Positions 11,866 through 36,192 of a stretch of DNA of 64,000 nucleotides are shown one piece after another. The notes under the pieces were generated by a model. The model was given only the letters and a program-made list of their open reading frames with translations, did not search any database and was not told the DNA's origin. The stretch lies in the NCBI GenBank assembly GCA_024280885.1, contig JAJRPF010000048.1:95868-159867 (forward strand), read 5' to 3'. A program made the translations under genes and the position numbers. Source of the stretch: Planctomycetota bacterium (GTDB taxonomy: Bacteria > Planctomycetota > JAJSAM01 > JAJVHW01). Every line of letters begins with the position of its first letter. Within the stretch, counting starts at the first letter, position 1.

Positions 11866-12160
11866 TCTTGCGTTTGTGCCGACTCCGTCGGCACGCGGTG
11901 TCTCGTTTGGGTCGCCTCCGGCTCCCCGCTCGGTTTCGCTCGCATGTTCGGCTTCGATCGCGGCTCCGACTGCTTCAACTGGGCGTGCGACTGGAGTTCG
12001 CTGCCTCGCATCGGGCCGTGACCTCGACGTGTCAGTGCGCGCGACTCAAGTGCGGGTTTCGCAGGCGGAATCCACTCCCTGTTCCTCACCGCGAGCGTCA
12101 CGCCGCGAGCGGAGCTCACGGCCCGCCACTCGCTCTCGTCTTCGGCGTTCTCGTCGGGCG
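11866..12160. repeat. Dispersed structured intergenic repeat, copy A
   Basis: Core 11936-12133 aligns without gaps to 32734-32931 and 35968-36165. Confidence 0.9.
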
Positions 12161-12567
12161 TCCGTCGCCGGTTCCTCGCCTGGCGTGTCTCATTGACCCG
12201 ATTGGGTGCGCACGCTCTAGCCATCCCACAGACCCGGTCTGGGGCGTTGTCTGGCTCCGCCGTCTCGTTCCTCGATCGACGGAGCGGGGACCGAGAAGCG
12301 ACCTCGCGGAAACGCCCCGCCGTCCCCGGTCGGCGGCGGAGCGACGATGTCTCTCGTCGGGGCCAGGTGGCCCGCCGACGCCCGGGTACGATCCCCACCC
12401 CGCGGCCCTCTCCGAATTCGACAACGCGCTCCGTGCTTGGCATGTGGCGGGGCAGCGAGCGCGCGTGTTCGAGCCGGGCGGGTCCCCACCGACCGAGCAC
12501 GATCCAAGAACGGGCCCGCCGCCATGGCCGAGCGGAACCTGAGCGAGGCGGGAACGCCTTCCCCGCG

Positions 12568-13623
12568 CTACTCGGCCGGGCCCGCCATTGCGTGCGCGCG
12601 GGTCTTCACCTTGTCGAGCTTGACCCGGACGCCGTTCTTCTCCGGGTCGTCGGTGCTGTCTTCGATGATCTCGGAGAGGACGACCTTGGGATCGCCCTCT
12701 CCACCGAAGTAGAAGCGTTGGACCTTTGCCGTGTCCTTCTTGCCCTTCTTGATCGGAGCGCGGAAGAGCACGACGGGCGAGTAGATGTCGCACTTTGCGA
12801 ACTGCGCCTTCACGAACTTTCCGGCCTCACTGTGGGTGACTTCCAGGCGGCTGGACTGGATCTTGCACGCGTCGAAGATGAGGCTCTTGCGCCAGTTGCG
12901 GATGGCGCAGAGAGCGCCGCTGACGCGGGTCGAGCGCACGACGATCTCGTTGGCGCCGCTGACGTCGAGACCGCCCTTCAGCCCGACTCGGTTGACGTGG
13001 GGCTCGCAGCGCCTGTTCTGGCCCTGGCCGCAACCGCGGACGTTGACTTTGACCTTGTTGTCGGTGGCTCCATCCGGCGGGACGATCGCGATCTTGATCG
13101 GCGTCTCGGCGCAGACGGACGAGAGTTCCACGGAGCCCGAGGCAACGCGGACATCAAGGAGCGCGCCGCGAACGAAGTCGAAGAGCTCAAGGAAGAGATG
13201 GCCGTTGATCGAGACGTCTTTCGGTGACTTCACGCCGCCGCCCTCGAAAATGGCCATGTCCATGTGGACTTCCTTGAAGTCCGCCTGCGGCTCGACTGTG
13301 ACGTTCTCGAAGACGACCTCGCGCCCCCCCACCCCGTGGACGACGAGAGTCCCGACGACCTCGATCGTGGCATCGGGTCCGCGGCCGATGATCCGGATGT
13401 CGTTGAGGATCGTGACCTCGATGCCTGCCGGAATCTGCACGCGGCCTTCGATGTAGTAGACGGCCCCGTCCTTGCGCAAGATCGCCGTCCTGTCCACCGG
13501 CAGTGGCAGCGCCTCCGGAGCGGCTTCGGCGGGCGTGCTCGGCGCGATGCAGATCGCTACGCAAATGACACCCACGGCCAACCCAAATGCGCGGATCGCC
13601 CGACCCATGCTCTGTCTCAGCAT
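12568..13623 (-). CDS. Secreted hypothetical protein (possible beta-helix)
   Basis: 351 aa, GAGGGAGG RBS, signal peptide, beta-strand-rich periodic sequence. Confidence 0.7.
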   Translation of the reverse strand: MLRQSMGRAIRAFGLAVGVICVAICIAPSTPAEAAPEALPLPVDRTAILRKDGAVYYIEGRVQIPAGIEVTILNDIRIIGRGPDATIEVVGTLVVHGVGGREVVFENVTVEPQADFKEVHMDMAIFEGGGVKSPKDVSINGHLFLELFDFVRGALLDVRVASGSVELSSVCAETPIKIAIVPPDGATDNKVKVNVRGCGQGQNRRCEPHVNRVGLKGGLDVSGANEIVVRSTRVSGALCAIRNWRKSLIFDACKIQSSRLEVTHSEAGKFVKAQFAKCDIYSPVVLFRAPIKKGKKDTAKVQRFYFGGEGDPKVVLSEIIEDSTDDPEKNGVRVKLDKVKTRAHAMAGPAE

Positions 13624-13766
13624 CGCGTCCTCCCTCTCCTCGGCGCGGGCTCGTGAGCCCGCATCGCCAGTCTACGGGAGCAGGGCGCTGTGCGGGACGC
13701 AGACTCGCTTCGCTGCGAGGTGCACCAGCGATGGGGCAGACGGCGTCGGTCCCCTACACTGTGCGC

Positions 13767-16700
13767 ATGCGCCATCGATTCCCTCTCCGCGCCGTCACGA
13801 CGGCCTTCGCTCTCGCTCTCTTCGCGGCCTCGCCCGCGCTGGCGGACGAGTACACCGTGGATACCTTCGTTGGGGGATATCAGGCTCCCGGAGGATCATC
13901 GACGCAGGTGATCGGACCGAACGAGGACGACACCACGGCGGGGATCACGCTGCCGTTCGCGTTCTCGTACTTCGGTCGGGTCTTCGACCGAGCATCTGTG
14001 TGCTCCAACGGTTGGGTCGCGTTCGGTTCCTCGTCGGCGACCACATCGGTCAACCCGGCGCTCCCCGCGACCGCGGTTCCGAATGCGGTGTTGGCTCCTC
14101 TCTGGGATGACCTCGCGACCGCCGCGGGCAGCGTCCGCTCGTTCGTCGAGGGTTCGGCGCCGACGCGCGTCTTCGTCATCGACTGGGACAGTGTCGAGTC
14201 GTTCGATGGATCGGCCACCGGTCTCTCGTTCCAGGTGCGGCTGCACGAAGACTCGGGCGTGGTGGAGTTCGCGTATGCGGCGGGCGGGGCGTACACCTCT
14301 CTCTCGTACACCGCGTCCTTGGAAGACCCGTCGGGCACGATCGCGTTCAGCGCGGCGGGGTCCGGCAACTCGCAGAGTGGCGCGCCTGCCGCCGACGCGC
14401 GCTTCACGCCGCGCGAAGTCGTCGTCACGGGGCGCGTCCTGCGCGATCGGCCGGTTGCCGACGAGACGGGTCTCGGCAACTCGACGGAGTTGGGCCTCGC
14501 GGTCGAGGGCGCGACAGTGCGCCTCGTGCGCGAGGATACGGGCGACGTTAGCGCGACGGCGATCACCGCGGCCGACGGTTCCTTCGCGTTGCGCGGTCTG
14601 GGCATCGATGCGCCGACGACGCTCGCTGTCGATCTGCTGACGACGGGTGACGGGGCGCGCGTTGCCTCGAGCGGAGGCTCGGAGTACAGCCACCGCATCG
14701 CAGCGACGATTGCGGCTGCCGCAAGCACGGTGCTGTCCGACGTCACGTTGGATGACGCAGTCGATGCCGACGATCCGCCCTTCCGGCGTGCGCTGAACGT
14801 TCATCAGGCCCTCGAGCGCGGGTATCGCGTCGCGCGGGCTGCGGCCATCGTGGCGGGGCAGGCGAGTCCGCCGAAGAGTGCGGAGTTCATTCCACGGTTG
14901 ACCGCGACGTGGTCGATCGGTGCGACCCCCGCCGGCGGCACGGCGTATGCCCCTGTCGCGGGGGTGAGTGGTGCGACGCTCTTCGTCTCCGACGCCACCG
15001 CCAATCCCGACGCCTACGATGACGACGTTCTCTTGCGCGAGTACGCCCTCCATGTGTTGGCGACGATTTCCGTCTCGCCCGGGGCCGTTCCACTGCCGCG
15101 CGGATTCTCGGTCGGGACCACCACCGAGTTCGCTTGGGCGCAGGGTTTCGGTTTCTGGTTCGCGTGCAGTGTCCAGGAACGTGACGTCTTCATCGACACG
15201 ACCTCTGCGTCGACAGCGATGGTCTTCGATCTGGAGGCGCCTCCGACGGGGGTCCTGGTCGAGACGTTCCCTGCCGCAGTCGCGGGCTCACTATGGGATC
15301 TTGTCGATCCGGCCGACGAGGTCACGGACGAGTTCCCGGGGACGACGGGGCCTTCGCCTTCGACGTTCCAGGACATCTTCACCACCATCGATCGTCAACT
15401 GGATGCGGTGCCCGAGGGTGGGTCCGCGTTCACCATCCGCGACTTCTTCACGAGTTTCGGTGACGCGGGCACCCCGGAAGGCGCCACCGCGCGGCGTCAG
15501 ATGGCGCGCGCGTTCATTCATCTGGGGACGCTCCCGGACGATGGAGCGGAGCCCGACGACCGCATCGACGAGGCCACCCTCGGCGGTGCTCCGGGAGTGA
15601 AGCTCCTCGGGCGCCGCATCTCGCCGGACAACTCCGACGTCCTGCGGCTTGACGTGGCGGGCCCGGATCCGCAGACCGTCGTGATCGCGCTGACACAGAC
15701 GACCGATGTGGATCTTTCGCTCCTGCTCCTGGGTGCCTCCGGCGGCCTCATCGACTTCGCGACGAACGTCGACGAGATCGGAGACGCTCGGGCGACGCTG
15801 CGCGTCGAACCGTCAGCGCCGCTGCCGCCGGGGACCTACTTCGTGCGCGTTGACGCGGGTACTGGCAATGGGGTCACCGGCGACTACGCCGTCTCGATTT
15901 TCAATCCGCTCGTTGTCGGGGGCGTCGACGCGCTTGAGTGGACCGAAGGCGTTCCACTGAAGGAGGACTTCCCGGCCAAGGGGGGGATCTCGCCATTCAC
16001 GTACACGACGTCGACGGGCGGCGCGCCGGGGCTGGTCCTCGCCGAGGACGGTTCGCGCATCACCGGAACCCCCACGCAGGCGGGTGAGTTCACGATCGAC
16101 GTCGCGGTCGCGGACGACGCCGCGCCCATCAATCGCGTTGCGCGCATGGTGCCGTTCGTCATCAACCCAGCTCTGGCGATCCGCCCGTTCTTCGCCGTTG
16201 CGGCGGAGCGCACCATCTCGCGTGTCCTCGGCACGGGTGGCACCGACCCGGAGTGGACCCCCGAGTTGCAACCCGGCGGCGATCTTCTGCTGGTCGGAGG
16301 CGCCCGCCTGACACTCACGGGCGCAACCGGCGCGCCCCGCACCTTCGGGATGGCCGCGCGTGCTGACGACGCCGTCGGCGCCATGCTGCCCCTGGCTCCC
16401 GTACAGGTCGTCGTGACGCGCGATTTCTTCGACGCGGACGGAGCGACCATCCCGGTTGCCGGCCCGTTCGGCTACTACTTGGACGCGCTCAAGGGGAGCG
16501 AGATCTCCGTCGTGCTGCGCTTCAAGGGAACCGGCGAGCGGCCGGAGGTGATTGGCTTCATCGACGACGCTGGCACGCCGCTACTCGGTGAGTCCACCGT
16601 CGTCACTTCCGGACGCAAGTTGAAGTTCAGTGGCCCGCTGCTGCGCGCGACAGGGCGCTACCACATGCTGCTCGACCCGAAGGGCTTCGTCGGTACTGTG

Positions 16701-17069
16701 GACGTCAAAGTGGAGGTCACGCCGCCGCGGAAGGCGCAGGGCGAACACGCCATCCAGCCAGCGGATACGGTTGTCGAGGTCCCCGTTGACGTCCTCGCCG
16801 GTGCGACGGTGAAGATCGTCTTGCGGCGCTCGCAGGCCCCGTCTTCGCTGGAGCCGACGGTGAGCGAGATCGAGGGCCCGGACGGCAATCTGCTCGCCCT
16901 CCCCACAGAGCGCCGCCGTCGGCGTGGACGCGAGGCGGTGCTCGTCTTCGAGGCACCGGCGTCGGGGCGCTACCTGCTGCGCTTCACGGGGCGGGACGGC
17001 ACATCGGGCCCGCTCTTCTACAAGGTTCGCGTGCGCACACCCCGCAAGGCGCGGCTCGTCCTCGACTGA
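13767..17069 (+). CDS. Large secreted modular protein: nidogen-like N-domain, degenerate zinc-peptidase domain, PPC/Ig-like domains
   Basis: Signal MRHRFPLRAVTTAFALALFAASPALA; ITLPFAFSYFG..SNGWVAFG..APLWDDL; DDDVLLREYALH..AWAQG..SLWDLVD; ITGTPTQAGEF Ig repeat. Confidence 0.8.
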   Translation: MRHRFPLRAVTTAFALALFAASPALADEYTVDTFVGGYQAPGGSSTQVIGPNEDDTTAGITLPFAFSYFGRVFDRASVCSNGWVAFGSSSATTSVNPALPATAVPNAVLAPLWDDLATAAGSVRSFVEGSAPTRVFVIDWDSVESFDGSATGLSFQVRLHEDSGVVEFAYAAGGAYTSLSYTASLEDPSGTIAFSAAGSGNSQSGAPAADARFTPREVVVTGRVLRDRPVADETGLGNSTELGLAVEGATVRLVREDTGDVSATAITAADGSFALRGLGIDAPTTLAVDLLTTGDGARVASSGGSEYSHRIAATIAAAASTVLSDVTLDDAVDADDPPFRRALNVHQALERGYRVARAAAIVAGQASPPKSAEFIPRLTATWSIGATPAGGTAYAPVAGVSGATLFVSDATANPDAYDDDVLLREYALHVLATISVSPGAVPLPRGFSVGTTTEFAWAQGFGFWFACSVQERDVFIDTTSASTAMVFDLEAPPTGVLVETFPAAVAGSLWDLVDPADEVTDEFPGTTGPSPSTFQDIFTTIDRQLDAVPEGGSAFTIRDFFTSFGDAGTPEGATARRQMARAFIHLGTLPDDGAEPDDRIDEATLGGAPGVKLLGRRISPDNSDVLRLDVAGPDPQTVVIALTQTTDVDLSLLLLGASGGLIDFATNVDEIGDARATLRVEPSAPLPPGTYFVRVDAGTGNGVTGDYAVSIFNPLVVGGVDALEWTEGVPLKEDFPAKGGISPFTYTTSTGGAPGLVLAEDGSRITGTPTQAGEFTIDVAVADDAAPINRVARMVPFVINPALAIRPFFAVAAERTISRVLGTGGTDPEWTPELQPGGDLLLVGGARLTLTGATGAPRTFGMAARADDAVGAMLPLAPVQVVVTRDFFDADGATIPVAGPFGYYLDALKGSEISVVLRFKGTGERPEVIGFIDDAGTPLLGESTVVTSGRKLKFSGPLLRATGRYHMLLDPKGFVGTVDVKVEVTPPRKAQGEHAIQPADTVVEVPVDVLAGATVKIVLRRSQAPSSLEPTVSEIEGPDGNLLALPTERRRRRGREAVLVFEAPASGRYLLRFTGRDGTSGPLFYKVRVRTPRKARLVLD

Positions 17070-17096
17070 TCGCACTTCGCGCTCTACCTTCCACTT

Positions 17097-18371
17097 GTGA
17101 ACAACTCAGAGCTCACTCTCACCGCGGACGACTCGCCCGAGTTCTGCGGTCCCGAGCACTTGGCGCGCGCCGTGCAGATGTCGCGGAGGTGGGATGCGGC
17201 CGAGGCCACCGAGGGCAAGCTGACGAAAGAGGGTCTGACCCGAATTGTCGAACTCTGCTACCGCGTGAGTCTCTCGACCGAGGAGGGGCGCCACCCGCGC
17301 TTCACCGTGTTCGTTCCCGGTCCCGCCGCCGAACGCCATCTGCGATTGGTCGCGCGCTTCGAGCCGCCGATCCTGCTCTCCGCGCAGACGCTGCGCCGCC
17401 TCGTTCCCTCGATTCCTGCGGGCGCACACGCGCTCTGCGTCGAACAGCGCGGCGATGAACATGTCGCCACCGGAGTTCTCTCGCTGCGCGATGCGACGGA
17501 CGTTCCGCAACTCGGCCGCCCCGCCGTGTCATTCGGCCTGGGCCTGCCCGGCCTGACCCTGCGAGTGGACGGTCCCGGGCAGGCGCGCGCGACCGAGAAG
17601 GGATTGACGTGGGAGTTGCACACGGGCCACGTCAAGCCCGTGTCGCACTACGCCATCTTGCGCGCGGTCCAGGATTGGTTCTCGCTGCTTGCGCTCTGGC
17701 TCGTCCGGGACTACCGCGACGAGGAGGGCGCCGAGGCGCTGCGCGAGCGCGAGGGACTCGGGGATCCGGCTCTCGTCTTCGACAGCGTGTGGTCGTACGT
17801 CCTTGCGATCACGATCGCCGGTGGCCACGGCGGTGCATTCGCGATCATTCCGGATGACGACGAGACGTCGCTGGTGCTGAAGTATCGGGCCTCGGGGATC
17901 AATCTCTTCGAAACCGTTCTCGGGTACTGGCGCGCCTGCTTTGACAGTTCGCTCATCACCGAGGCATCGTTGCTCGAGCGCCGTGCGGCGCGCTGGGAGG
18001 CGTCGAAGCGGTCGATGTACTCGTCGGCGCAGGCACTGGCGCATCTCGCAAACGTCGATGGTTGCGTTGTCCTGAACTCGCGGCTGCGCGTGCTCGGTTT
18101 CGGCGCGGAGATCCGCGTCCCGGAAGAGGACGTGGCGCACAGCACGTGCATCGACGCCGATCCCTTCACGTTGAAGAAGCGCGGCGACGTCGACCTGCAG
18201 CAATTCGGGACGCGGCACAGGTCGGCATATCGATTGGCGGCGAAGCGGCCGGGAACCATCGTCTTCGTCGTCTCGCAGGATCGGGATCTGCGCGTCTTCT
18301 ACGGACGTCGCGACAAGCCCGGCGAGGTTTGCCTGTGGCAGTCGCTCGGTGCGTGGATGGCTGGAGTCTGA
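17097..18371 (+). CDS. Diadenylate-cyclase (DisA_N/DAC) domain protein with DACNV-type N-terminal region
   Basis: VDGCVVL (DGA motif), FGAEI, GTRHRSA (RHR motif), VVSQD; N-terminal VSLSTEEGRHPRF. Confidence 0.82.
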   Translation: MNNSELTLTADDSPEFCGPEHLARAVQMSRRWDAAEATEGKLTKEGLTRIVELCYRVSLSTEEGRHPRFTVFVPGPAAERHLRLVARFEPPILLSAQTLRRLVPSIPAGAHALCVEQRGDEHVATGVLSLRDATDVPQLGRPAVSFGLGLPGLTLRVDGPGQARATEKGLTWELHTGHVKPVSHYAILRAVQDWFSLLALWLVRDYRDEEGAEALREREGLGDPALVFDSVWSYVLAITIAGGHGGAFAIIPDDDETSLVLKYRASGINLFETVLGYWRACFDSSLITEASLLERRAARWEASKRSMYSSAQALAHLANVDGCVVLNSRLRVLGFGAEIRVPEEDVAHSTCIDADPFTLKKRGDVDLQQFGTRHRSAYRLAAKRPGTIVFVVSQDRDLRVFYGRRDKPGEVCLWQSLGAWMAGV

Positions 18372-18427
18372 CACGCGCCACGCGCGCCCGGATGTCAGAC
18401 ACTCGCCTCATCTTGCGTCGCTTCCGA

Positions 18428-20482: not shown

Positions 20483-20576
20483 CGATCCTCCCGTGTCACC
20501 GGTCGGGCGACACGGGAGATGGTAGCGCACACGTCGATCGTGGAACCGACCGGCTTTCCAGCTCGGCTACTTGGGA

Positions 20577-27006: not shown

Positions 27007-27172
27007 CGCACCACGCTACCACATCGCCCGCATCCCGCTCGGCGCGGCAGTTTCGATCAGGACCGGCGCAGCCGGACCGATCGCCCTTCCTCGCATCCGT
27101 GCCCCGTATCGAAGAGACGTTCGCCGCGCTTCGCTCCACGATCGGGGCGCCTTCTGCGATGATGGCAGCGAG

Positions 27173-27826: not shown

Positions 27827-27938
27827 CGCCTGACCGCTGAACGCGCCGCGACGCCCGTCGGGCGTGCCTGACACGTTAGGCCTGTCGGAGTCGTGGGATA
27901 TGTTTCTCCCGTTCGCTGCCCGGCAGTGGTGGACGCGT

Positions 27939-29318
27939 ATGACTGAACTGCTTCAACCCATTCCGCTCGCAGCACTTATGACTGGTATTGTCATGGGCGT
28001 GGTCGCCGCTTGGATGGTCTCGTCCGCCCGGCTGCGCGCGGCGGTTGCGCTGTCCACGGGGCTCGCGCGGGCCGAAGCGGAGACGCGCGCGGGAGTCGCC
28101 GAGGCCGCGTGCGCGGCCGAGCGGGAGCGCCGGGAGCACGCCGAGGCCGAGGCGTCGCGCGCACGCGATCGTTCAGCGTCGCTCTCGCATGAGCTCGCCG
28201 TGGCCGAGGAGCGGGCGGAGCATCTCGCCGCGCGTGGGCGCGAGCGCGAGGGCTTTCTCGAGGACGCGCGCCGACAACTCGAGGCCACCTTCGGCACGCT
28301 GGCCGCGTCAGCGCTCGAGGCCAGTAATCGGCGCTTCTTGGAGCTTGCCGAGCAGCGTCTTGCGTCCGCTCGCGAGGGCGCGCAGGCGGATCTCGATACG
28401 CGTCGGCAGCAGATCGAGTCGCTGGTGGGGCCGCTGCGCGAGACGCTCGGACGGCTTGAGACGCGAACGGCCGAGGTGGAGCGGGCACGTGTCGATGCGT
28501 ATGCCCGTCTGGATCGTCAGGTGGAGATCCTGGCGACGGCTGCAGGCGACCTCGGCGAGCGCACGACGAGCCTGGTGACGGCGTTGCGCGGCACGCGCAC
28601 GCGTGGTCGCTGGGGCGAGATCGCGCTTCGCAACGTCGTCGAAATCGCTGGCATGACCGAGCACTGTGACTTCGAGGAGCAGGCGACGACCGCAGACGGG
28701 CGTCGGCCGGATCTGACGGTACGGCTCCCCGGGGGGCGGCTGATCGCGGTCGATGCGAAGGCGCCGCTCGACGCCTACATGGATGCCTGCGACGCGGCGA
28801 CGGAGAAGGAGCGCCGCGCAGCGCTGGATCGCCACGTCGCGGCGTTGCGTTCGCATGTGCGGGACCTCGCGTCGCGCGGTTACGCCGACGCGCTGTCAGG
28901 CGACGTGGATCTCGTCGTACTCTTCCTCCCCGGGGAGCCGTTCCTGGGGGCGGCGTTCGCGCATGCGCCGGAACTGCAGGTCGAAGCGCTGCGCTCGCGC
29001 GTGCTGGTGGCGACACCCGCGACGCTGGTCGCGCTCCTGCGCACCGTCGCGATCTACTGGCAGCAACGCGACGTGGCGCAGAACGCCGAGGCCATCGCCG
29101 CGACGGCACGCGAACTCTACGAGCGGGGCGTCGCGTTCGGTGAGCACCTCGAGCGCATCGGTACGGGGCTGCGTCAGGCTGTGGGCGCGTACGACCGGGC
29201 GGTCGGCTCATTCGAACGGCGTTTCGTGCCCATGGCCCGGCGGCTCGAGGAACTGCATGTCGCGGACCACGCGCGGCGTCAACTGGAACCACCGACAGCC
29301 GTCGATGCGCGTCCGTAG
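27939..29318 (+). CDS. rmuC: DNA recombination protein RmuC
   Basis: N-terminal TM and coiled coil; RGRWGEIAL, RPDL.V.LPGG, VDAKAPL, FLPGE, ATPATL. Confidence 0.93.
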   Translation: MTELLQPIPLAALMTGIVMGVVAAWMVSSARLRAAVALSTGLARAEAETRAGVAEAACAAERERREHAEAEASRARDRSASLSHELAVAEERAEHLAARGREREGFLEDARRQLEATFGTLAASALEASNRRFLELAEQRLASAREGAQADLDTRRQQIESLVGPLRETLGRLETRTAEVERARVDAYARLDRQVEILATAAGDLGERTTSLVTALRGTRTRGRWGEIALRNVVEIAGMTEHCDFEEQATTADGRRPDLTVRLPGGRLIAVDAKAPLDAYMDACDAATEKERRAALDRHVAALRSHVRDLASRGYADALSGDVDLVVLFLPGEPFLGAAFAHAPELQVEALRSRVLVATPATLVALLRTVAIYWQQRDVAQNAEAIAATARELYERGVAFGEHLERIGTGLRQAVGAYDRAVGSFERRFVPMARRLEELHVADHARRQLEPPTAVDARP

Positions 29319-29352
29319 CACGCCCCCGAGAGCACGAACGGCAGCGTCGGCG

Positions 29353-29880
29353 TCAGCGGAGCGCGAGCGGGAAGCGGGCCTTCTTCGTCCAGCGCTTCCG
29401 GTGACTGGTCATGAGCCACGCCTCGCGCACCCGCGCGTCGAGCGGCAGACCGTGGCCGATCCCGGCCTCTACGCGATTCATCAGCACGAGATCGAGACGC
29501 TCGCGGCGGTCCGCAATGGTCAGGTGCGGCACGACGTCGTCGAAGCGCCCGCTGTAGGGCGGGTAGTCGGGATAGAGCTCGACCAATTTCCCGATCATGC
29601 GCCGGATCGGCCGATCAGGTGTGGGGGCGAGGTAGACCACCCCGGGGAAGCGCGCCAGGTTCGGGAAGCGGAGCGAGAAGCCGCGTGTCTTCGCGAAGTG
29701 GAGGCGGAGTTCCTCGATCGTCTGTGCCGTGATCTTGGCCCGTGGGATGAATGGATAGACGAGTGTGATATGCGCGGGCACGCCAGCGGTTGCAGACGGG
29801 TCATAGAGCGATCGCCACTCGCCGACGAGCTCCTCTGCTTCCGGAATCGGGATCAGCAGCGCGCTCTCACCCTCGGCCAT
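29353..29880 (-). CDS. 2H phosphoesterase (2'-5' RNA ligase superfamily)
   Basis: Two HxT motifs: PAHITL and PHLTI. Confidence 0.85.
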   Translation of the reverse strand: MAEGESALLIPIPEAEELVGEWRSLYDPSATAGVPAHITLVYPFIPRAKITAQTIEELRLHFAKTRGFSLRFPNLARFPGVVYLAPTPDRPIRRMIGKLVELYPDYPPYSGRFDDVVPHLTIADRRERLDLVLMNRVEAGIGHGLPLDARVREAWLMTSHRKRWTKKARFPLALR

Positions 29881-30018
29881 TCTGTGCGTCCCTCCGCCTT
29901 CCCAGGCCGGGAGATCATCGCCGCGACGTGCCATGGAGCCAAATGGTTCGCGCCGAATAAGTTCATGGGGCCGAGGACGAGCGAGGCGGAGCGGGGCAAG
30001 ACCGAGCGTCGCCGCTCT

Positions 30019-30684
30019 TCAATGCGGATAGAGCGCTTCGACGAGGCCGGAGACTCCCAGCTCCTTGATCGTGATCAATACGCGTGCGCGCCGAGCCGAG
30101 AAGGGGCGACCGAGTGCGACATCGACGTGCGCACGGCCCGGGACTTCGAAGCGGCGCAACCCCAGCGTCTCGGCCACGGATGGCGAGACCAAGAGCGGGC
30201 CGCGAAAGTCCGGGTCGAGGAGAACGGCAGCCGTGGTCGCGGCGGAGCCGTCCGGGGCAGAGATGCGAACGAGCAGCGATCCACCTGCCTCGGCCGCGAC
30301 GCGCTTCGCTCCGCGCGTGAGGATTGCGCTGCCGCGCGCGTCGCGACGGAGCGTCAGGCCGAGCTTTGTGGCGAACTCGCGGCCGGCGATGAGGGCGGAT
30401 GCGGGGAGGTACGCCATCCGAGGGCGCGTGTCGCCGGCCTCCGCAGGCTCAAAAACGTACCTATGTGGCGCCAGAGGAGCGATCTGATGCGCCTCTTCCA
30501 TCGAGCCTGCTGGCGAGGCCTCACCGTCCGCGATGGCGATCCACGCGGCGTCGGCGGGCCACAAGGCCCTCGTCACCACGGCATCGTCGAGTGAGCGCGC
30601 CGTCGCTACGCGATCAGCCTGGGACACGCACCCACCAGATAGCGTGAGTGCGAGCGTGAGCAGGATCGTGAAACGAGCGTTCAT
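30019..30684 (-). CDS. Lipoprotein, possibly degenerate retropepsin-like fold
   Basis: Lipobox SGGC; VLLDPDFRGPLLVSPSVAETLGL resembles LxDTGF..L.LP..A..LGL. Confidence 0.55.
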   Translation of the reverse strand: MNARFTILLTLALTLSGGCVSQADRVATARSLDDAVVTRALWPADAAWIAIADGEASPAGSMEEAHQIAPLAPHRYVFEPAEAGDTRPRMAYLPASALIAGREFATKLGLTLRRDARGSAILTRGAKRVAAEAGGSLLVRISAPDGSAATTAAVLLDPDFRGPLLVSPSVAETLGLRRFEVPGRAHVDVALGRPFSARRARVLITIKELGVSGLVEALYPH

Positions 30685-30980
30685 GGAGAGGTCGCGCCAC
30701 TCTCGCGTGCGCTTGTCATCGCCTCGTCGCGGCGCGCGGCGAATACGTCGTGCTCGCGCTCGCCGCAGATCGACGCCGTTCCGGCCGCCACGGCAATCTG
30801 AACGGCATGGACGGGGATGAACAGCACCCACCAGCCGAGCGCGAAGAGGGCGACCTCGATGCCGAGCACGATGCCGAAGGCCGTGAGCTCGTTCGCGTAG
30901 GCCAGGCCCGCGCCGGGGATCACCGCCGAGAGGGCGGCGGCGAGGGCCGGATCACGGCGACGGGCGGTTGCGGACTGCAT
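30681..30980 (-). CDS. Small TM2-like membrane protein
   Basis: DPALAAALSAVIPGAGLAY motif, hydrophobic; ATGA coupling to the lipoprotein gene. Confidence 0.7.
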   Translation of the reverse strand: MQSATARRRDPALAAALSAVIPGAGLAYANELTAFGIVLGIEVALFALGWWVLFIPVHAVQIAVAAGTASICGEREHDVFAARRDEAMTSARESGATSP

Positions 30981-31135
30981 GCGGCAGAGGATATCGCCTC
31001 CGGGGCGTGCGCGCCCGCGTAGGCTCAGGGTTATCCTGTCACTACGTGCGGCGCAATTCGCGGGGGTGTTCGACCGTCCAAGCCCACGCAGTCAACTCAG
31101 AAGCTACGACTCGTCACCAATGAGGATCCCCACCC

Positions 31136-32683
31136 ATGCGGAAGTCCGTGCTGTTGATCTCGCTGGCCGCCATCGCAAGCGTGGGCCTCTTCGCACGCGG
31201 TAGCCGCGGCGGGGACGATCTCCAGAAGCGCTATCGGCTCAGGCGAATCAGCGGAGCGACCAGCATGGCGTCGCCCGCCAAAGCGCTCCTCGAGAGCACC
31301 GAGGACTGCCCGCTCGCTGCCGGGGTTCCCGAGGCCATCGGCCCGAATTTCGACCCCGATCTCTATGACGAGATCAGCATCGCAGGCAACGGCCGACTTG
31401 TCGCGTATGCGACCCAGACCGCGCAGCTCCCGATCCCCGGGATGCGCGTGATCGTGATCCAGCGCGAGGGGGGCGACGCCGAGACCGTCAGCGAGGGCTC
31501 GGGCGAGAACGATCAGCCATCGATCGACCTCGACAAGCTCGGGAGCCGCCTGGCGTTCCGTGGTCCCGGGGGATCTCGCGGCGCCGACACCGACATCTAC
31601 GTACGGACCGTCACGCGTCGCGGCAACGGCCTGGGCGGCGAGTTCCCGACCACCGAGACGACGAACCTCACTGACATCGGGAATGGCAACAGCACATTCG
31701 CGAGCTATCCCTCTCTGACGGCGCGCACGCTCGTAACCGAGATCGATGGCTCAGGGATCACGTTCATCGAGCGCGACGCACGTCTCGCGTTCATTTCCGA
31801 TGGCGACTTCGACAAGGACCAGCGCCGTCCCAACCACGCCGATCCCGGCCACAACGAAGAGAACGTCGAGCAACTCTTCATCTGGCGAGAGAAGGACCGC
31901 CGCTTCACGCAGGCAACGCGCAATACGGATCCAGACGTCCGCATGGCCCGGCCCTCGATCTCCGGCAACGGCAAGTTGGTCGCGTTCGAGTGCACGGCGG
32001 ATCTCGTTCCCGACGCGACGAACCCCCGCGACGCGACGCAGGTCGGCAATCCGGACAACGTACGACAGATCTACCTCTGGCGTCGCACGCGGAAGGGACA
32101 GTCGATTATCCAGCTGACGTTCGGAGACCGTGCCTCATACGCTCCGCGCATCGCCGCGAACGGCAGTCAAGTGCTCTTCTGCTCGCGCGCGGATCTGGTC
32201 CCCGGCGGCAATCCCGAGGGCAACTACGAGATCTTCCGCCACCGCCGTGGCACGCGCGCCGCCCGTCGCCTGGCGCAGCTGACGCAGACCCCCGAGGGCG
32301 AGAACGTCCTTCCGCGACCGACGCGCAGCCCTGGGCGTTTCGTGTTCTATTCCACTGCGGCCCCGCCCGCCGGCGGAGCGACGTTCGGTCTCGGACCGCG
32401 GCAGTGTGGCCCGACAGCGTTGCTCTGGACGCGCGGGCGGGTGCGACTCGTCGGTGGGTTGCTCGATCTGGAGCAGATCGGGAACGCGCCGAACCTGATC
32501 TTCGTCGGCCCGCCAGCGGCGACCTTCGCTTCGAAGATTCACTTCGCGACCAACGATCCGCAACTGGACCCACCACCGTTGCGTGACGACGACGACGATC
32601 CGACCAACGATCCGCCGTCGCCCGGCACGGCCGGTCCGACGCAGCTCCACCTGGCGCGGGCTACGCGCTTCGCGCGCCGGTGA
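31136..32683 (+). CDS. Secreted TolB-like (PD40) beta-propeller protein
   Basis: Signal peptide; repeats ISIAGNGRLVAY, PSISGNGKLVAFE, PRIAANGSQVLF, NPEGNYEIF. Confidence 0.8.
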   Translation: MRKSVLLISLAAIASVGLFARGSRGGDDLQKRYRLRRISGATSMASPAKALLESTEDCPLAAGVPEAIGPNFDPDLYDEISIAGNGRLVAYATQTAQLPIPGMRVIVIQREGGDAETVSEGSGENDQPSIDLDKLGSRLAFRGPGGSRGADTDIYVRTVTRRGNGLGGEFPTTETTNLTDIGNGNSTFASYPSLTARTLVTEIDGSGITFIERDARLAFISDGDFDKDQRRPNHADPGHNEENVEQLFIWREKDRRFTQATRNTDPDVRMARPSISGNGKLVAFECTADLVPDATNPRDATQVGNPDNVRQIYLWRRTRKGQSIIQLTFGDRASYAPRIAANGSQVLFCSRADLVPGGNPEGNYEIFRHRRGTRAARRLAQLTQTPEGENVLPRPTRSPGRFVFYSTAAPPAGGATFGLGPRQCGPTALLWTRGRVRLVGGLLDLEQIGNAPNLIFVGPPAATFASKIHFATNDPQLDPPPLRDDDDDPTNDPPSPGTAGPTQLHLARATRFARR

Positions 32684-32689
32684 GCCGAT

Positions 32690-32958
32690 GGCGCGTTGTT
32701 GCGTTGGGGTCGCCTCCGGCTCCTCGCTCGCTCTCGCTCGCATGTTCGGCTTCGGTCGCAGCTCCGGCTGCTTCAACTGGGGCTGCGCTCGGAGCTCGTT
32801 GCCTCGCATCGGGTCGGAGACTCGACGTGGAAGTTGGCGCGTCGCATGGGTGGGTCTCGCAGGCGGAATCCGCTCTGTCAGCCTCACCGCGAGTGTCACG
32901 CCGTGAGCGGAGCTCACGGCCCGCCACTCGCTCTCGTTTCTGGCGTTGTCGTGGGGGG
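32690..32958. repeat. Dispersed structured intergenic repeat, copy B
   Basis: Core 32734-32931; about 83% identical to copy A and 86% to copy C by hand count. Confidence 0.9.
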
Positions 32959-33058
32959 GGGCCTCTCTCGCGCCTGCCATGCCAGCGGCGCCGCGTTCCG
33001 TCCGAACTCCTCTCCCCAATCAATCTCCTCTCCCTGATCAACCGAGCGGGTGTGCGGC

Positions 33059-33165
33059 GTCGAAGTAGCGTGCCTGGCTCAATTTTCTCGGCGCGGCGAC
33101 GAGTCGCGCCCTCGTCCATCTGAGTCACCGCGCCGAAAAATCTGAGCCTGGCACGGTATTTCGAC
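33059..33165. repeat. Long imperfect inverted repeat (42-bp arms, 23-nt loop)
   Basis: 33059-33100 versus reverse complement of 33124-33165: 35/42 matches, no gaps. Confidence 0.8.
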
Positions 33166-33378
33166 CCCTCGACGAGTCGCGATCCATCCTGACCCATCTC
33201 CCCATCTTCATCTCCATCCCCTCGCCACCTCCCAGACCGGGGACGGCTCTCGGTCCTCTCACCAACTCTCCTCCACCACGCCGCTCGCCGTCCGTCTCGT
33301 CGTGCCCGGCTCGAAAGGGCCCGGAAGCTGACCCGGTCAGACCGCTCTCCCGTCGCGGCGTACCGTAGGATGGCCTGG

Positions 33379-35898
33379 ATGCGCATTGCCTCACGCTTCG
33401 TCGCCCTCTTTGTCTTCACCGCACTCCTGGGCGTCAGCCCCATTCGAGCGGATGACGATGGCGGGGATGCTCCGCCGCCCGATGAGGCGGTCGTTGACGA
33501 TCCGGCCGCGGTTGAGCGTCGGAAGCGTCTGGAACTCGATGATCGGCGCGAGAAACTGCCCGACTCGGCGCAGCCGGCCATGGTGTTGCTCGATGACTTT
33601 CGCGACCGCGAGTTTCGCGTCTGGTCGTCGCTGCGAGACGCCGTCGTCCTGCACGGAGTCGCGGCGCTCCCCGCGCTCGAGATCGCACTTGAGGAACTCG
33701 ATTGGGAGACGCGCGCGTTTGCGGCTTCTTGCCTAGCTCTGCTCGGGGAACGCTCCACCGCGGCTGCGCTCGGTGATGCGTACCACGCCGAGAAGAAGTT
33801 CACCGAGGCGCGTCGGCAGTACGTTCTCGCGATCGCGGCGTTGGGCGCGAAGTCGTCGAAGGAACTCCTCCTCGAAGCGGCTGGCGAGGAGTCCTCCGGT
33901 ATTCGACTGGCGGCCGTGCGGGGACTGGGCGCTCTCGGCGATCCGGAGCTTGCCGACTTCCTGCGCGGCTTCGTCGACGACGAGGATCTCGACATCCGCT
34001 ACGAGGCGCGCGGCAGTCTTGCGGCACTCGGTGATGAGGCGGTGGTTGCCAGCCTGCTCGCGGAGACCAAAGGACTCGTGTCCTCGCGCCAGTTGCAGCG
34101 CGTGCCGTCGCTCGAGACCGAAGACAATGGCGATCGGTACTCGCACTACCTGCTCGGGCTCGCGTTGGCGCGGGCGCCGCGCGAAGCGGCCGACAAGATT
34201 CTCGTCGCCGCGCTGACGGCCTCAAAACCGTACGCCCACAAGGACTTCCTGCGCATGGGCGTCGCCGAGGGGCTCGGTCGCCGCGCGGCGGGCGGCGAGG
34301 CGCCGCACCCCAAACTCGCCTCGGGCATCGCGCACAAGAAGAACGAGGTGCGCGTCGCATGCAGCTACGGAGCTGGTTGGGCACGTGCTCCGGAACTCGT
34401 GCCGAGGCTCGTCAAGGCGCTCGGCGACAGTCAACTCGACGTGCGGCACAACGCTGTCATGGCGCTCGGTCGAATTGGCGGTGACGGCGCCGCGAGCGCG
34501 CTGGCGAAGGCATCGAAAGACAAGGCTGGAGAGATCCGCATCAGCGCCGTGCGCGCCATGTCAGCAGTGCCGGGCGCTGTGACGACCAAGGCGCTGATCG
34601 GCACCCTTCGCGACAAGAAGTACATGGTGCGCGTGATGGCCGCGCGAGCGTTGCGCTACCGGACGCAGGAAGCGGGCGTCCTCTCTGGTTTGCTGCGTTC
34701 CGCGCGCGACTCGGATTACGGAGTTCGCGAGCAGGCGCTCGCTGCCCTCGCACATCATCCCGTCGGTGACGACGTCGTGGAGGCGCTGGTCTCCGCGCTC
34801 AGTGATCGCGACTTCGGCGTTCGTACCAACGGGAGCCTTGGTCTCGCGAAAATCGTGGAACACTGCGAAGCCGCCAAGGCGGCTCCCGTCGCGGCGCGTA
34901 GCGTGTCGCTCTATCTCTCGGCCGACACCACGCGCGAAGAGAAGGGCATGCTCGAGTACCTCGACGCGGCACGCGCTTCCGGTTGCGTTCTTCCGCTGAT
35001 CAGCGGTCTTGAGAGCGACACGTTGGAGACGCGCGTCCGGGCGAATAGGGCGCTGATGACCGTTGGTGAGACGTCGCGCAACTTCAAGCCGGAGGCGTCG
35101 GCAGACGATCGTGCGAAGGCTGTGAAGCGGTGGCGCGAGTGGTGGGCGAGTCGGGCTGATGATCTGCCTGCTCGTGGCTCCCGCGCGCGGGCAGCGATCA
35201 CGGGCAAGCTCTCGGAGGCCGCGCGCGATCTGAAGTGGAAGGGTCTCGACATCGCCTTGCTCTTCGACTCGACGGGGTCGATGGCGGGCCTCATCCGCGC
35301 CGCGAAGCAACGCACTGATGAGATCATCCACGAGCTTCATGGCTTGCTGCCCAGCTTGCGCGTCAGCGTCTTCACGTACCGCGACTACGGCGACAGCTAC
35401 GTCTGGTATGGCACCCCGCTCACGTTCGACACGTCGAAGCTCGCGGGCTTCCTGCAGAACGCGACGCACGGTCAAGGCGGGGACATCCCGGAGGCGGTCT
35501 TCGAGACCACGAAGAACGCAATGGAACGCCTCGATTGGCGTCCCGAAGCCCACAAGGTCGTGGTCTACGCCGGTGACGCGCCGCACCATCCAGAGTCGAA
35601 CGGCGTCTTCATGGAGACGATCCGCAACTTCTGTACGCCCGAGAATAATGGGGTCCTGCACGCGATATTCACCGACACGAATCGCCGCTCGCTGGACATC
35701 AAGACACGTAAGAAGCGGGCGGACTTCTCGAAGGTCACCTCGCCCTTCTTCGAACGCTACAAGGAGACAGCGGCTGTCGGCCGCGGCAAGGCTGTTCTGC
35801 TCGACGACGAGAGCGCGCTCATCAAGGACTTGCTCGTGCTGACGTTCGGCGAGACGTTCCGCGCGGACATCGAGAACCTGCTGGATTTCGAGTACTGA
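33379..35898 (+). CDS. Secreted HEAT-repeat protein with C-terminal VWA domain
   Basis: Signal peptide; many D....VR..A..AL HEAT repeats; DIALLFDSTGSM MIDAS, YRDYGD, GGDIPEAV, GDAPHH; start 33379 (or 33370). Confidence 0.9.
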   Translation: MRIASRFVALFVFTALLGVSPIRADDDGGDAPPPDEAVVDDPAAVERRKRLELDDRREKLPDSAQPAMVLLDDFRDREFRVWSSLRDAVVLHGVAALPALEIALEELDWETRAFAASCLALLGERSTAAALGDAYHAEKKFTEARRQYVLAIAALGAKSSKELLLEAAGEESSGIRLAAVRGLGALGDPELADFLRGFVDDEDLDIRYEARGSLAALGDEAVVASLLAETKGLVSSRQLQRVPSLETEDNGDRYSHYLLGLALARAPREAADKILVAALTASKPYAHKDFLRMGVAEGLGRRAAGGEAPHPKLASGIAHKKNEVRVACSYGAGWARAPELVPRLVKALGDSQLDVRHNAVMALGRIGGDGAASALAKASKDKAGEIRISAVRAMSAVPGAVTTKALIGTLRDKKYMVRVMAARALRYRTQEAGVLSGLLRSARDSDYGVREQALAALAHHPVGDDVVEALVSALSDRDFGVRTNGSLGLAKIVEHCEAAKAAPVAARSVSLYLSADTTREEKGMLEYLDAARASGCVLPLISGLESDTLETRVRANRALMTVGETSRNFKPEASADDRAKAVKRWREWWASRADDLPARGSRARAAITGKLSEAARDLKWKGLDIALLFDSTGSMAGLIRAAKQRTDEIIHELHGLLPSLRVSVFTYRDYGDSYVWYGTPLTFDTSKLAGFLQNATHGQGGDIPEAVFETTKNAMERLDWRPEAHKVVVYAGDAPHHPESNGVFMETIRNFCTPENNGVLHAIFTDTNRRSLDIKTRKKRADFSKVTSPFFERYKETAAVGRGKAVLLDDESALIKDLLVLTFGETFRADIENLLDFEY

Positions 35899-35930
35899 CG
35901 CGGGGGGCGCGCGGAGCGCGTCGGCCGCGT

Positions 35931-36192
35931 CCTTGATTTTGTGGCGACTCCGTCGCCACCCCTCGCTTCGCTCGGGTGTTCGGCTTCGGTCGCGGCTCCG
36001 GCTGCTTCAACCGGGGCTGCGTTCGGCGTTCGCTGCCGCGCATTGGGTCGGAGACTCGCCGTGGAAGTTGGCGCGTCGCATGGGCGGGTTTCGCAGGCGG
36101 AATCCCCTCCCTTCACCTCACCGCGAGTGTCACGCTGCGTGCTCCGCACACAGCCCGCCACTCGCTGTCGTTTCCGGCGTCGTCGTTGCGGG
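35931..36192. repeat. Dispersed structured intergenic repeat, copy C
   Basis: Core 35968-36165; left hairpin GTGGCGAC-TCC-GTCGCCAC matches copy A GTGCCGAC-TCC-GTCGGCAC. Confidence 0.9.

Follow-up and report, generated by a model that had tools for sequence, protein, structure and literature searches.

Three copies of a dispersed sequence, each following a different gene, are present in a 64,000-nucleotide window (the whole stretch of DNA analysed) from the genome of an uncultured planctomycete (6.3 Mb in 74 contigs; referred to here as G000). Their presence raises the question of whether they derive from a mobile element, from a structured RNA, these being the two proposals of the preliminary description, or from a decayed protein gene. 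Our best explanation, to which we assign about an even chance of being correct, is a lineage-specific, non-coding, non-autonomous polar mosaic repeat situated at the ends of transcription units.

Three copies downstream of unrelated genes

The cores of copies A (11936 to 12133), B (32734 to 32931) and C (35968 to 36165) were verified as being 198 nt in length, on the same strand and in a gap-free register. Identities over the 198 nt were 83.3% for A-B and 86.4% for B-C, in agreement with the range of 83 to 86% given in the preliminary description, whereas the A-C identity was lower (80.3%). A repeat search of the window detected likeness running past the core (274 nt at 81%), and comparisons of the window copies with other copies produced blastn E values of 1e-54 to 1e-77, indicating that the similarity is far beyond chance. 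As had been described, each copy lies just after the stop codon of a plus-strand gene, within intergenic gaps that measured 744, 686 and 588 nt for A, B and C, respectively, and the upstream genes are mutually unrelated. The hairpins and the enclosing stem GCGAG(C/T)G/CACTCGC were read directly in the sequence and were also recovered as inverted repeats.

Copy A is preceded by a class I/II aminotransferase gene (10630 to 11823, plus strand; ORF list, our own gene calls and Pfam PF00155, E = 5.8e-62), whose TGA stop codon occupies plus-strand positions 11821 to 11823 and whose orthologues in G001, G003, G002 and G007 terminate at the same stop. A junction hairpin, termed HP0, spans positions 11821 to 11864 of the plus strand, with a perfect 20-bp stem and a 4-nt loop (arms 11821 to 11840 and 11845 to 11864, 100% complementary), such that the left arm opens with the stop codon; this hairpin was not found after the orthologous stop in four of four relatives. 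On the same strand, HP0 is followed by a partial unit start (11865 to 11894), detected with an inverted-repeat search and consisting of the T-rich linker TTCTTGCGTTTG and the 5′ hairpin GTGCCGAC-TCC-GTCGGCAC, and then by a full unit (11895 to 12139; nhmmer and alignment) comprising a variant of the 5′ hairpin, the core and a 3′ hairpin at 12091 to 12133. The terminal tail, beginning TCTCGTCTTCGGCGTTCTCGTCG, extends from 12140 to 12167 (plus strand) and corresponds to profile positions 244 to 271. The covariance-model match to this copy (C59:107761-108006, equivalent to window positions 11894 to 12139) scored 257.7 bits.

Upstream of copy B is a gene for a PD40-repeat protein (31136 to 32683, plus strand; ORF list, own gene calls and Pfam). 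The full unit (32692 to 32937, plus strand), including a 3′ hairpin at 32889 to 32931, matched the covariance model with a score of 252.9 bits (C59:128559-128804) and is followed on the same strand by a tail (32938 to 32965) and by a partner module, M2 (33031 to 33190), a long imperfect palindrome with 45-nt arms at 33056 to 33100 and 33124 to 33168.

Copy C follows a gene for a HEAT-repeat/VWA protein (33370 to 35898, plus strand; ORF list, own gene calls and Pfam) with a TGA stop codon at 35896 to 35898. The C terminus of this protein, IENLLDFEY*, is common to three of four relatives (G003, G007 and G002), and the G001 orthologue ends with IENLLDFAR* at the same stop position. HP0 of this copy (35897 to 35931, plus strand) begins at the second base of the stop codon and has a two-tier stem and a GGA loop (arms 35897 to 35912 and 35916 to 35931, 81% complementary). 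At the orthologous site in G003, convergent stop codons are just 12 nt apart and no hairpin is present. The full unit of copy C (35932 to 36171, plus strand) contains a 5′ hairpin at 35941 to 35959 and a 3′ hairpin at 36120 to 36168, both detected with the inverted-repeat search; its covariance-model match (C59:131793-132038, window positions 35926 to 36171) scored 233 bits, and a tail follows at 36172 to 36199 on the plus strand.

Family size, placement and distribution

The prediction that many copies would be present genome-wide was borne out by 150 blastn matches, 156 nhmmer profile matches at 99 loci and 125 covariance-model matches in G000, with the loci dispersed over 47 of the 74 contigs. 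The unit is ∼245 nt in length and contains, in order, a T-rich start, a 5′ hairpin, a long-range multi-helix core and a 3′ hairpin. Units were found singly or as tandem arrays with up to three full units, plus part-units. Modules corresponding to profile positions 3-75/83, 3-196, 197-243 and the tail (244-271) recur in varying combinations, with the tail being confined to terminal units. A locus reads from the host stop codon through HP0, one to three full units and part-units to the tail and, often, to M2, a palindromic module which is present at 64 loci genome-wide and within 600 nt downstream of 47 of the 99 unit arrays. The tail merges gradually with variable DNA and further repeats, so that the element has no defined 3′ boundary; the left junction shows an inverted, not a direct, copy of the flank.

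The closest dispersed pair of copies exhibited ∼92% identity, the nearest-neighbour median was 88% and the maximum of 97% was due to a tandem pair. Hence, there was no sign of recent spread, and near-identical dispersed copies were not found among the family copies of G000. Conservation along the unit was very uneven, an observation that is equally compatible with selection on individual copies (for an RNA function or protein binding) and with selection on source copies.

Placement was assessed using gene calls from a crude caller built for this analysis. None of the 99 arrays overlapped a called gene, and 78 of the 84 arrays having an upstream gene were co-oriented with it. Almost all of these co-oriented arrays (73 of 78) began no more than 84 nt past the stop codon, the usual distance being ∼40 nt. 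The downstream neighbour was convergent in 43 of 72 cases (60%) as compared to 31% genome-wide (p = 6e-7). Four loci contained two head-to-head arrays, each behind its own gene and 0.3 to 0.9 kb apart, indicating that array orientation tracks the upstream gene and not one replication direction. The repeat is located at transcription-unit 3′ ends. No recurrent neighbouring gene was found, the neighbour proteins being unrelated (largest cluster, 3), and no transposase adjacent to the arrays was detected among the neighbouring proteins in G000.

Several reading frames were open in numerous copies (up to 59 of 86), as might be observed if the family had decayed from a protein gene or were the non-coding terminus of an insertion sequence. 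Open frames are, however, expected at 67% G+C; the arguments previously drawn from non-synonymous substitutions and from stop codons in two frames carry little weight, as a high G+C content opens most frames. Variability did not exhibit a period of three (0.156/0.135/0.157), no frame was open throughout and no array overlapped or abutted a recurrent gene, and we regard an origin from a protein gene or insertion sequence as extremely improbable. Searches of the 64-kb window with Rfam 15 produced no matches at the gathering score, and at E ≤ 1 only miRNA-precursor models matched the hairpins, far under their thresholds. The family is, as proposed, non-coding, structured, multicopy and without a protein of its own.

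A blastn search for the unit in 40 relatives detected nothing real. With the covariance model, the unit was not found in seven other genomes of the family or in nine more of the order, just hairpin-sized matches being detected in one of these 16 genomes, nor was it found by blastn, the only method applied, in 24 further genomes of the phylum. The search for empty sites that had been suggested showed the unit to be lacking at eight orthologous sites in relatives, although these relatives are distant (67 to 83% DNA identity) and loss is formally possible. The stop position was the same in all of the compared relatives, or all but one, at seven of these sites and was common to one of five relatives at the eighth (C1). 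Among the seven stop-conserving sites, a hairpin was seen in G004 alone, at one site, and differed from HP0. Presence/absence polymorphism of the unit was not caught among the genomes compared.

Junction hairpin, fold and proposed mode of spread

The gap between the stop codon and the unit is filled by HP0, a long, mostly locus-specific hairpin with a stem of 14 to 33 bp and with inner hairpin motifs that are common to all junctions. The left arm begins with the stop codon or within the coding end, its most common starting point being the second base of that codon, and the arms also cover TGA stops (34 of 73). In five loci (e.g., C59:265068 and C30:61173), the right arm repeats the final 9 to 21 coding bases in reverse complement. 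Both orientations of the loop occur, with GGA in 17, TCC in 3, TTC in 12 and GAA in 4 of 48 hairpins. The sister genus genome G003 contains at least 72 matches of its own ∼160-nt tandem unit, which is unrelated in sequence to the G000 unit, and in 9 of 18 of these arrays the upstream hairpin contains the stop codon that closes a frame of 120 codons or more; the same junction architecture is, therefore, present in this sister genus with an unrelated unit.

These loci could have arisen without transposition if recombination among hairpin-bearing gene ends, or gene conversion between them, had brought the unit to native terminator hairpins and local slippage had made the arrays, as for a minisatellite-like, MIRU-type repeat spread by homology. 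The presence of arrays and part-units, the likeness of tandem neighbours (mean identity of 89% versus 79% overall) and the failure to find recent identical copies are consistent with such an origin, and the common inner motifs could supply the homology. However, hairpins of at least 14 bp within −30 to +70 of the stop codon were nearly confined to element loci (36 of 73 element-associated genes versus 28 of 4,380 other genes), and a strict scan detected about three stop-overlapping hairpins of the HP0 kind without a unit. Furthermore, native terminators of G000 look unlike HP0, and the orthologous sites in relatives were without such hairpins, save for the different one in G004. An origin from native terminators is, on these findings, improbable.

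The part-units are 5′-complete and 3′-truncated on the plus strand, with recurrent forms (3-75/83 and 3-196) that are followed by a restart at position 3. Together with the inverted copy of the host flank in the HP0 right arm and the observation that tandem neighbours were each other's closest relatives in 7 of 11 pairs, this pattern could reflect addition by a reverse transcriptase, whereby units would be copied from minus-sense RNA onto a folded-back 3′ gene end and target priming, snap-back and template jumping would generate 3′-truncated units, arrays and a target-templated hairpin. This route is rendered very improbable by the detection of one weak RVT_1 gene in G000 and none in G003 (93% complete), despite its analogous family, by the absence of an A-biased or other reverse transcriptase-like error spectrum and by the nature of the 3-196 form, which is a defined module boundary and not a random truncation. 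Moreover, template switching by replicative polymerases explains the hairpins without this enzyme.

Covariation, a suggested check, was above control levels: helix cells were paired in 96.4% of cases as compared to 90.0% in shuffles and 34 to 42% with slid partners, and there were 95 double-change cells versus an expected 38.8 ± 4.9, a level reached by none of 500 shuffles. Double changes fell in both hairpins and in three core helices, and the fold is conserved across units. The paired swaps and flipped loop noted in the preliminary description are, therefore, real and exceed controls but are weak evidence for an RNA gene, as they are a published signature of template switching. Template switching at inverted repeats homogenises and expands the arms and inverts 3-nt spacers, for example from TCC to GGA (PMC8604942, PMC8794818), and PMC13100816 is likewise in line with the pattern seen here. 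In the present family, the signature consists of loops present both ways round and of transversions outnumbering transitions among unit substitutions. Replication template switching probably shapes the hairpins, paired swaps and flipped loop included. It accounts for arm growth and flips, not for the polarity or for the frequency with which arms stop at the stop codon.

The unit may, nonetheless, have a structured-RNA role. If the copies were functional 3′-UTR or read-through modules, whose plus-strand fold would be kept by selection at each locus, they might act as mRNA 3′-end stabilisers, processing platforms, sRNA precursors or protein sponges. The conserved fold with its double changes, the near-invariant blocks among variable ones and an orientation that follows the upstream transcript are all consistent with such modules, as are an excess of G-U-type cells on the plus strand (207 versus 140 on the minus strand), a column pair (58:65) that is G-U in 30 of 32 units and a single-copy fold that is stabler than shuffles (z = −2.6 for the plus strand and −3.7 for the minus strand). 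These z-scores do not, however, favour the plus strand, there is no Rfam relative and the element is missing from the congeneric genome as well as from the other genomes of the taxonomic family, indicating that it has no essential conserved function. The terminal hairpins pair almost solely by Watson-Crick pairing, which, together with the flipping loops, points to a DNA-level process. We consider RNA modules to be an unlikely explanation for the family as a whole.

For the polar mosaic repeat that we prefer, the element would have entered the lineage once it had separated from that of the congeneric genome. Its spread in trans would have depended on strand and hairpins and targeted the coding strand where transcription units end, with an HUH/Y1-type single-strand DNA enzyme being the leading candidate. 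Replication template switching would keep the hairpins perfect, flip their loops and lengthen them outward until they include the stop codon and coding end of the host gene, and only overwriting of the non-coding right arm would survive selection. Once in place, the hairpins could terminate the upstream message, protect its 3′ end or form a block at its stop codon.

Relation to known repeat systems

The ∼245-nt repeat falls among the mosaic intergenic repeats known from other bacteria, as a fresh variant. A BOX-like/BIME-like descriptive class fits, the family being non-coding, modular, variable in module number, intergenic and multicopy. BOX elements of Streptococcus pneumoniae have the structure boxA-boxB(n)-boxC, with boxes of 45 to 59 nt. 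The planctomycete element resembles these in being intergenic, non-coding, modular with a variable internal module count, strongly folded, proteinless, lineage-restricted and present in on the order of a hundred copies, but has no sequence relation to them, an unrelated host, much longer units (∼245 nt), co-orientation with the upstream gene and a tie to the stop codon through a locus-specific hairpin. Mycobacterial interspersed repetitive units (MIRUs) are 40 to 100 bp in length and contain small ORFs coupling translation within operons. Likeness to MIRUs extends to intergenic tandem units along the direction of transcription, ends overlapping the upstream stop codon and a copy number that varies per locus, whereas the ∼245-nt units are non-coding, are mostly at operon ends (60% convergent) and are preceded by a long hairpin.

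REP/REPIN repeats are palindromes of ∼20 to 40 nt, single or in inverted pairs and in either orientation. Membership of this class was rejected for a unit of ∼245 nt that is not palindromic overall and has one orientation in 78 of 84 arrays. A search of G000 with PF01797 detected two Y1-transposase genes, one on C10 with a repeat, M3, on both sides and one on C6 flanked by a 27- to 34-nt inverted repeat. The ∼245-nt unit flanks neither gene, and a RAYT-linked system was rejected. Palindrome-associated transposable elements (PATEs) are derived from IS200/IS605, strand-specific, mobilised in trans and without evident target duplication. As in PATEs, terminal inverted repeats are missing and subterminal hairpins are present in direct orientation (HP0/5′ hairpin at the start and 3′ hairpin at the end), whereas any target duplication would be obscured by the undefined 3′ boundary. 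The planctomycete element differs in its tandem arrays and in having no conserved target tetranucleotide besides the stop codon. A PATE with a cognate TnpA(Y1) was rejected, there being no Y1 gene in G000 with matching element ends, as was orientation by replication direction, in view of the four loci with opposed arrays. The suggested REP/REPIN- or PATE-like membership was, therefore, not upheld. Against the mobile reading, no enzyme is tied to the element and both Y1 genes carry other cognate repeats.

Three further candidates did not fit. Unlike in a classical MITE, no inverted repeat joins the ends of the unit, and the end hairpins are direct homologues of each other. Class C group II introns, which target terminators, have D5/D6 ribozyme domains and an RNA of about 600 nt or more; there was no Intron_gpII or group-II-D1D4 match, and the unit is only 245 nt in length. 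Integron attC sites have R″/R′ core sites (GTTRRRY) in cassette arrays with an integrase nearby, whereas the hairpin ends here are the stop codon and its complement and the loci are on 47 of 74 contigs.

REP/BIME mosaics and GTAG-tagged REPs with RAYT/TIRYT tyrosine transposases are treated by Di Nocera et al. 2013 (PMC3733652), according to whom hairpin repeats form mosaics at transcription-unit ends and favour unidirectional and convergent gene gaps. The planctomycete family shares these features, and G000 likewise has Y1-transposase genes with their own repeats, but the unit is not a short palindrome, its orientation is fixed and the HP0 arms are largely locus-specific. In Escherichia coli, REPs are found within 15 nt of the stop codon (Liang, Rudd and Deutscher, cited in PMC5082802), and ribosome stalling with trans-translation, 3′-end protection and termination are known consequences of these stop-proximal REPs. 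The stable hairpin directly after the stop codon is a functional analogy only: the planctomycete stems are 14 to 33 bp in length, their first base lies at the stop codon or within it, and a large structured unit comes next.

Repeat unit, family and fold

The preliminary description reported three similar 198-nt cores, and these were recovered at 11936-12133 (copy A), 32734-32931 (copy B) and 35968-36165 (copy C) of the window, on one strand and in a register without gaps. Identities over the 198 nt were 83.3% for A-B, 86.4% for B-C and 80.3% for A-C. The hairpins it quoted and their enclosing stem were present in the sequence, as were the paired swaps and the reverse-complemented loop; across the family, loops are common in either orientation. 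Similarity exceeded the core, with a direct-repeat search detecting 274 nt at 81% and a covariance model placing complete plus-strand units at 11894-12139 (A), 32692-32937 (B) and 35926-36171 (C). Each copy is located 3′ of the stop of an unrelated plus-strand gene, encoding a class I/II aminotransferase, a PD40-repeat protein and a HEAT/VWA protein, respectively.

The prediction of many copies genome-wide was borne out. A unit profile built on 81 blastn matches gave 156 matches at 99 loci in this genome (6.3 Mb, 74 contigs, 66.9% G+C), while the covariance model gave 125 matches. A full unit spans profile positions 3-243 and terminal units carry a tail (positions 244-271). Short forms recur (3-196, 3-75/83 and 197-243) and are found in combinations such as [3-80][197-243][3-271]. 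Arrays contain up to three full units plus part-units, the latter being nearly always 5′-complete and 3′-truncated on the plus strand. The 86 full units had a mean identity of 79% and a median nearest-neighbour identity of 88%; dispersed copies did not exceed ∼92%, the maximum of 97% came from two units in tandem, and in 7 of 11 tandem pairs each unit was the best match of the other.

The consensus fold consists of a 5′ hairpin, a long-range multi-helix core and a 3′ hairpin. For 32 units, 96.4% of cells were paired versus 90.0% in column shuffles and 34 to 42% with slid partners. Changes on both sides of a pair occurred in 95 cells as compared to 38.8 ± 4.9 in shuffles, a level reached by none of 500 shuffles. 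Double changes affected 13 of 50 pairs, mostly within the 5′ and 3′ hairpins; as these two hairpins occur as a few discrete types, the number of independent double-change events is far lower than the number of cells. Folding energy singled out neither strand of the unit. G-U-type cells favoured the plus strand (207 versus 140), and hence a functional plus-strand RNA is a live alternative explanation of the unit. Caution is required, as apparently compensatory stem changes and flipped loops can arise in repeats by template switching, without selection on an RNA.

A decayed protein gene and a protein-coding origin in general were excluded, as variability by position modulo three had no periodic pattern (0.156/0.135/0.157) and no reading frame was open across all copies. 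The Rfam comparison proposed earlier yielded no family at the gathering score and, at E ≤ 1, only miRNA-precursor models on the hairpins. Diversity-generating retroelement (DGR)-like A-specific variation was rejected. Of the original interpretation, a non-autonomous repeat was upheld but not membership in REP/REPIN or PATE; the unit is most appropriately classed as a polar mosaic repeat that is non-autonomous, specific to this lineage and located at the ends of transcription units.

Polarity and the stop-codon hairpin

The main new result is the polarity of the unit arrays and their association with a stop-codon hairpin. Gene calls came from a crude caller of our own (4483 genes, 86% coding), and no array among the 99 overlapped any of them. 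Fifteen arrays had no upstream gene because the contig ends there; 78 of the other 84 were co-oriented with the upstream gene (∼93% one polarity), and 73 of these 78 started within 84 nt of the host stop, typically at ∼40 nt. At four loci, two arrays face each other, each 3′ of its own gene, indicating that array orientation tracks the gene and not the replication arm. The downstream neighbour was convergent in 43 of 72 cases versus 31% genome-wide (p = 6e-7).

The ∼40-nt gap between stop and unit is occupied by a long hairpin, termed HP0. A stem of ≥14 bp in the interval from stop −30 to +70 was present for 36 of 73 element-associated genes versus 28 of 4380 others. The most frequent starting point of the HP0 left arm is the stop codon's second base, and some arms begin up to 17 nt inside the coding sequence. 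The inner stem and loop resemble the 3′ hairpin of the unit, the outer stem being largely particular to each locus. Of 126 hairpins recovered by a strict scan of the genome, only ∼3 were stop-anchored with no unit behind them, and native terminators differed in appearance from the stop-anchored hairpins. Terminator-like hairpins of the ordinary kind frequently have GAATCGA ... TCGATTC on their two sides in this genome, suggestive of a terminator working in both directions.

Mismatches in HP0 were of G-U type in 15 instances on the plus strand versus 7 on the minus strand (n = 69 in total), too small a difference to decide between the strands, and loop orientations (n = 48) included GGA (17), TCC (3), TTC (12) and GAA (4). 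TAG stops were enriched at element genes (36 of 73 versus 29% elsewhere; p = 4e-4). Once in place, a 14-33-bp stem beginning at the stop codon would terminate, protect or stall, and effects on termination, mRNA decay or ribosome release would be expected at ∼100 genes. By analogy, HP0 may be likened to Escherichia coli REPs, which, when located ≤15 nt from the stop, cause ribosome stalling and trans-translation (work cited in PMC5082802), and to GTAG REPs, whose termini are described in PMC3733652 as frequently providing TAG stops.

Orthologous sites and the sister-genus unit

Eight sites, namely window copies A, B and C and contig positions C59:265068, C24:73078, C30:61173, C8:40436 and C1:13326, were compared with four to six related genomes per site (67 to 83% DNA identity). 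The unit was absent from the relatives at all eight sites, as judged at site B from a 645-nt shorter gene interval in the sister-genus genome, G003, and at the other sites from the sequences themselves. At seven sites, at most one of the relatives compared differed in its stop position; at the C1 site, a Gly/Arg-rich tail varies in length and the stop position is common to one of five relatives only (G007). No comparable hairpin was detected in the relatives at these eight sites, with the sole exception of G004 at the orthologue of C24:71972-73078. This perfect 23-bp hairpin (L213:1453-1502) begins exactly at the TGA stop and is unrelated in sequence to the hairpin at the same gene in the genome under study; the DNA past it is not high-copy.

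Where the stem reaches into the coding sequence (the C59, C30, C8, C1 and C24 sites), the right arm reads as the coding end in reverse complement. The coding end under the stem is conserved in relatives at four of these loci, C1 being the exception, indicating an ancestral left arm and a right arm derived from it as an inverted copy. A protein search of metagenome contigs with the aminotransferase upstream of copy A found 80 loci (≤68% identity), none with a stop-anchored hairpin; these loci had ordinary terminators 6-40 nt past the stop. Window gene 13731-17069 has its orthologue directly 3′ of the aminotransferase gene in both G001 and G007. The minus-strand gene at window 12568-13608 (346 aa, no Pfam match) has its G007 orthologue elsewhere; the direct adjacency in G001 and G007 indicates that this gene and the repeat island lie within an insertion relative to those genomes.

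No true copy of the unit was detected by blastn among 40 relatives, including a congeneric genome (91% complete), and the covariance model gave hairpin-sized matches only, in one (G003) of 16 other genomes of the order. G003 has its own unrelated tandem unit of ∼160 nt, with at least 72 matches in arrays of up to four units (L148:1500-1700, L150 and L159-L188), that is absent from G001, G002, G004 and G007. These arrays are preceded by a conserved hairpin, GGCACGCCGCGTGC-GNA-GCACGCGGCGTGCC, abutting TGA/TAG stops, and in 9 of 18 the outer left arm contains the stop of a reading frame ≥120 codons long. At least 92 exact 17-mer loci in genome contigs from many phyla were examined with nhmmer and rejected: none was a real copy, only the motif itself matching, and the 17-mer is too short for tracing unit distribution.

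Contigs from four public DNA runs represented related strains with many unit copies and visible tandem joints. Flanking genes were ∼95% alike in the X2 contigs. The contigs stop at the element, unit depth is far above that of the flanks, and no contig across an empty site was found in the four runs. A search for sequencing runs containing this DNA found none from RNA. A limited literature search (planctomycete intergenic palindromic repeats; stop-codon/terminator insertion sites) found no published account of the unit.

Possible origins and co-resident repeats

Mosaic repeats such as REP/BIME, BOX and MIRU are known but, to our knowledge, their choice of site and orientation is mostly unexplained. 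This unit is unusual, in ways open to testing, for its anchoring to the stop codon and for a hairpin templated by the host. One polarity at ∼93% of loci, contact with the stop through a partly host-copied hairpin and recurrence with an unrelated unit in another genus render the question of targeting testable.

Replication template switching at inverted repeats probably produced the paired swaps, the flipped loops and stems growing outward into host sequence. This process is described in PMC8604942, PMC8794818 and PMC13100816 as homogenising arms, extending 5-bp arms to 16 bp in one event, inverting 3-nt spacers (TCC to GGA, GAA to TTC) and exhibiting a transversion bias in bacteria. Selection would tolerate overwriting in the non-coding arm only, which would account for the right arm being the copy. 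Neither the polarity nor the contact with true stop codons is explained by template switching. The idea we favour is that the unit inserts in a strand-specific manner at sites where transcription ends and the coding strand is exposed, possibly through a single-strand DNA enzyme that recognises hairpins and acts in trans.

A broader and rather doubtful suggestion is that this planctomycete family holds an undescribed class of polar gene-end elements, in which trans machinery would insert unrelated structured cargo (∼245 nt here, ∼160 nt in G003) on the coding strand at the last stop codon of a transcription unit, building a hairpin with an outer arm copied from the end of the host gene. Insertion would then be coupled to transcription/translation termination, for example by ssDNA integration into the exposed non-template strand. 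Homology-driven spread of the unit is less likely, as is a reverse-transcriptase mechanism; one weak reverse transcriptase match was detected in the genome and none in G003, and a link of the unit to this single gene was rejected.

Proteins flanking the arrays formed no family (largest cluster, three members), and a cis transposase or recurrent neighbour gene was rejected on this clustering. A Y1 transposase flanked by the unit had been sought, but both Y1 genes of this genome are flanked by other repeats. The first (C6:33854-34927, 357 aa) has 27-34-nt inverted repeats at its flanks (33760-33870 and 34900-34990) and single-copy orthologues of 358-366 aa in G001, G002, G003 and G007. A motif similar to these repeats, CACAGACC(C/G)GGTC...GGGGC, occurs 3′ of copy A at window 12225-12250, and single copies of the repeat are often found 60-130 nt past unit arrays. 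The second (C10:48958-49548, 196 aa) has repeat module M3 on both sides in the same orientation (C10:48218-48880 and 49581-49679), which is a RAYT/REP-like arrangement.

M3 is a ∼95-nt repeat also present downstream of copy A (window 12300-12393; 100 profile matches), where it adjoins M4, a dispersed repeat of ∼100 nt (12417-12513; 70 profile matches). Neither is associated with unit arrays, with 3 of 100 and 5 of 70 matches, respectively, near one. M2 is a long imperfect palindrome at window 33031-33190 (45-nt arms, 82% complementary; 64 loci). Of the 99 unit arrays, 47 had an M2 copy within 600 nt on the downstream side, and M2 is likely a partner module or co-resident element.

Direct-repeat searching also detected a plus-strand 72-nt segment present five times in window 1480-8023 (63-72% alike, spaced by ∼1.2-2.7 kb), apparently a motif conserved among paralogous genes in tandem. 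A further direct repeat at window 37463-37612, with a 15/30-nt period (GGCGAGAA(A/G)TC(G/C)TG...), lies in or beside a small plus-strand ORF and is probably a coding peptide repeat.
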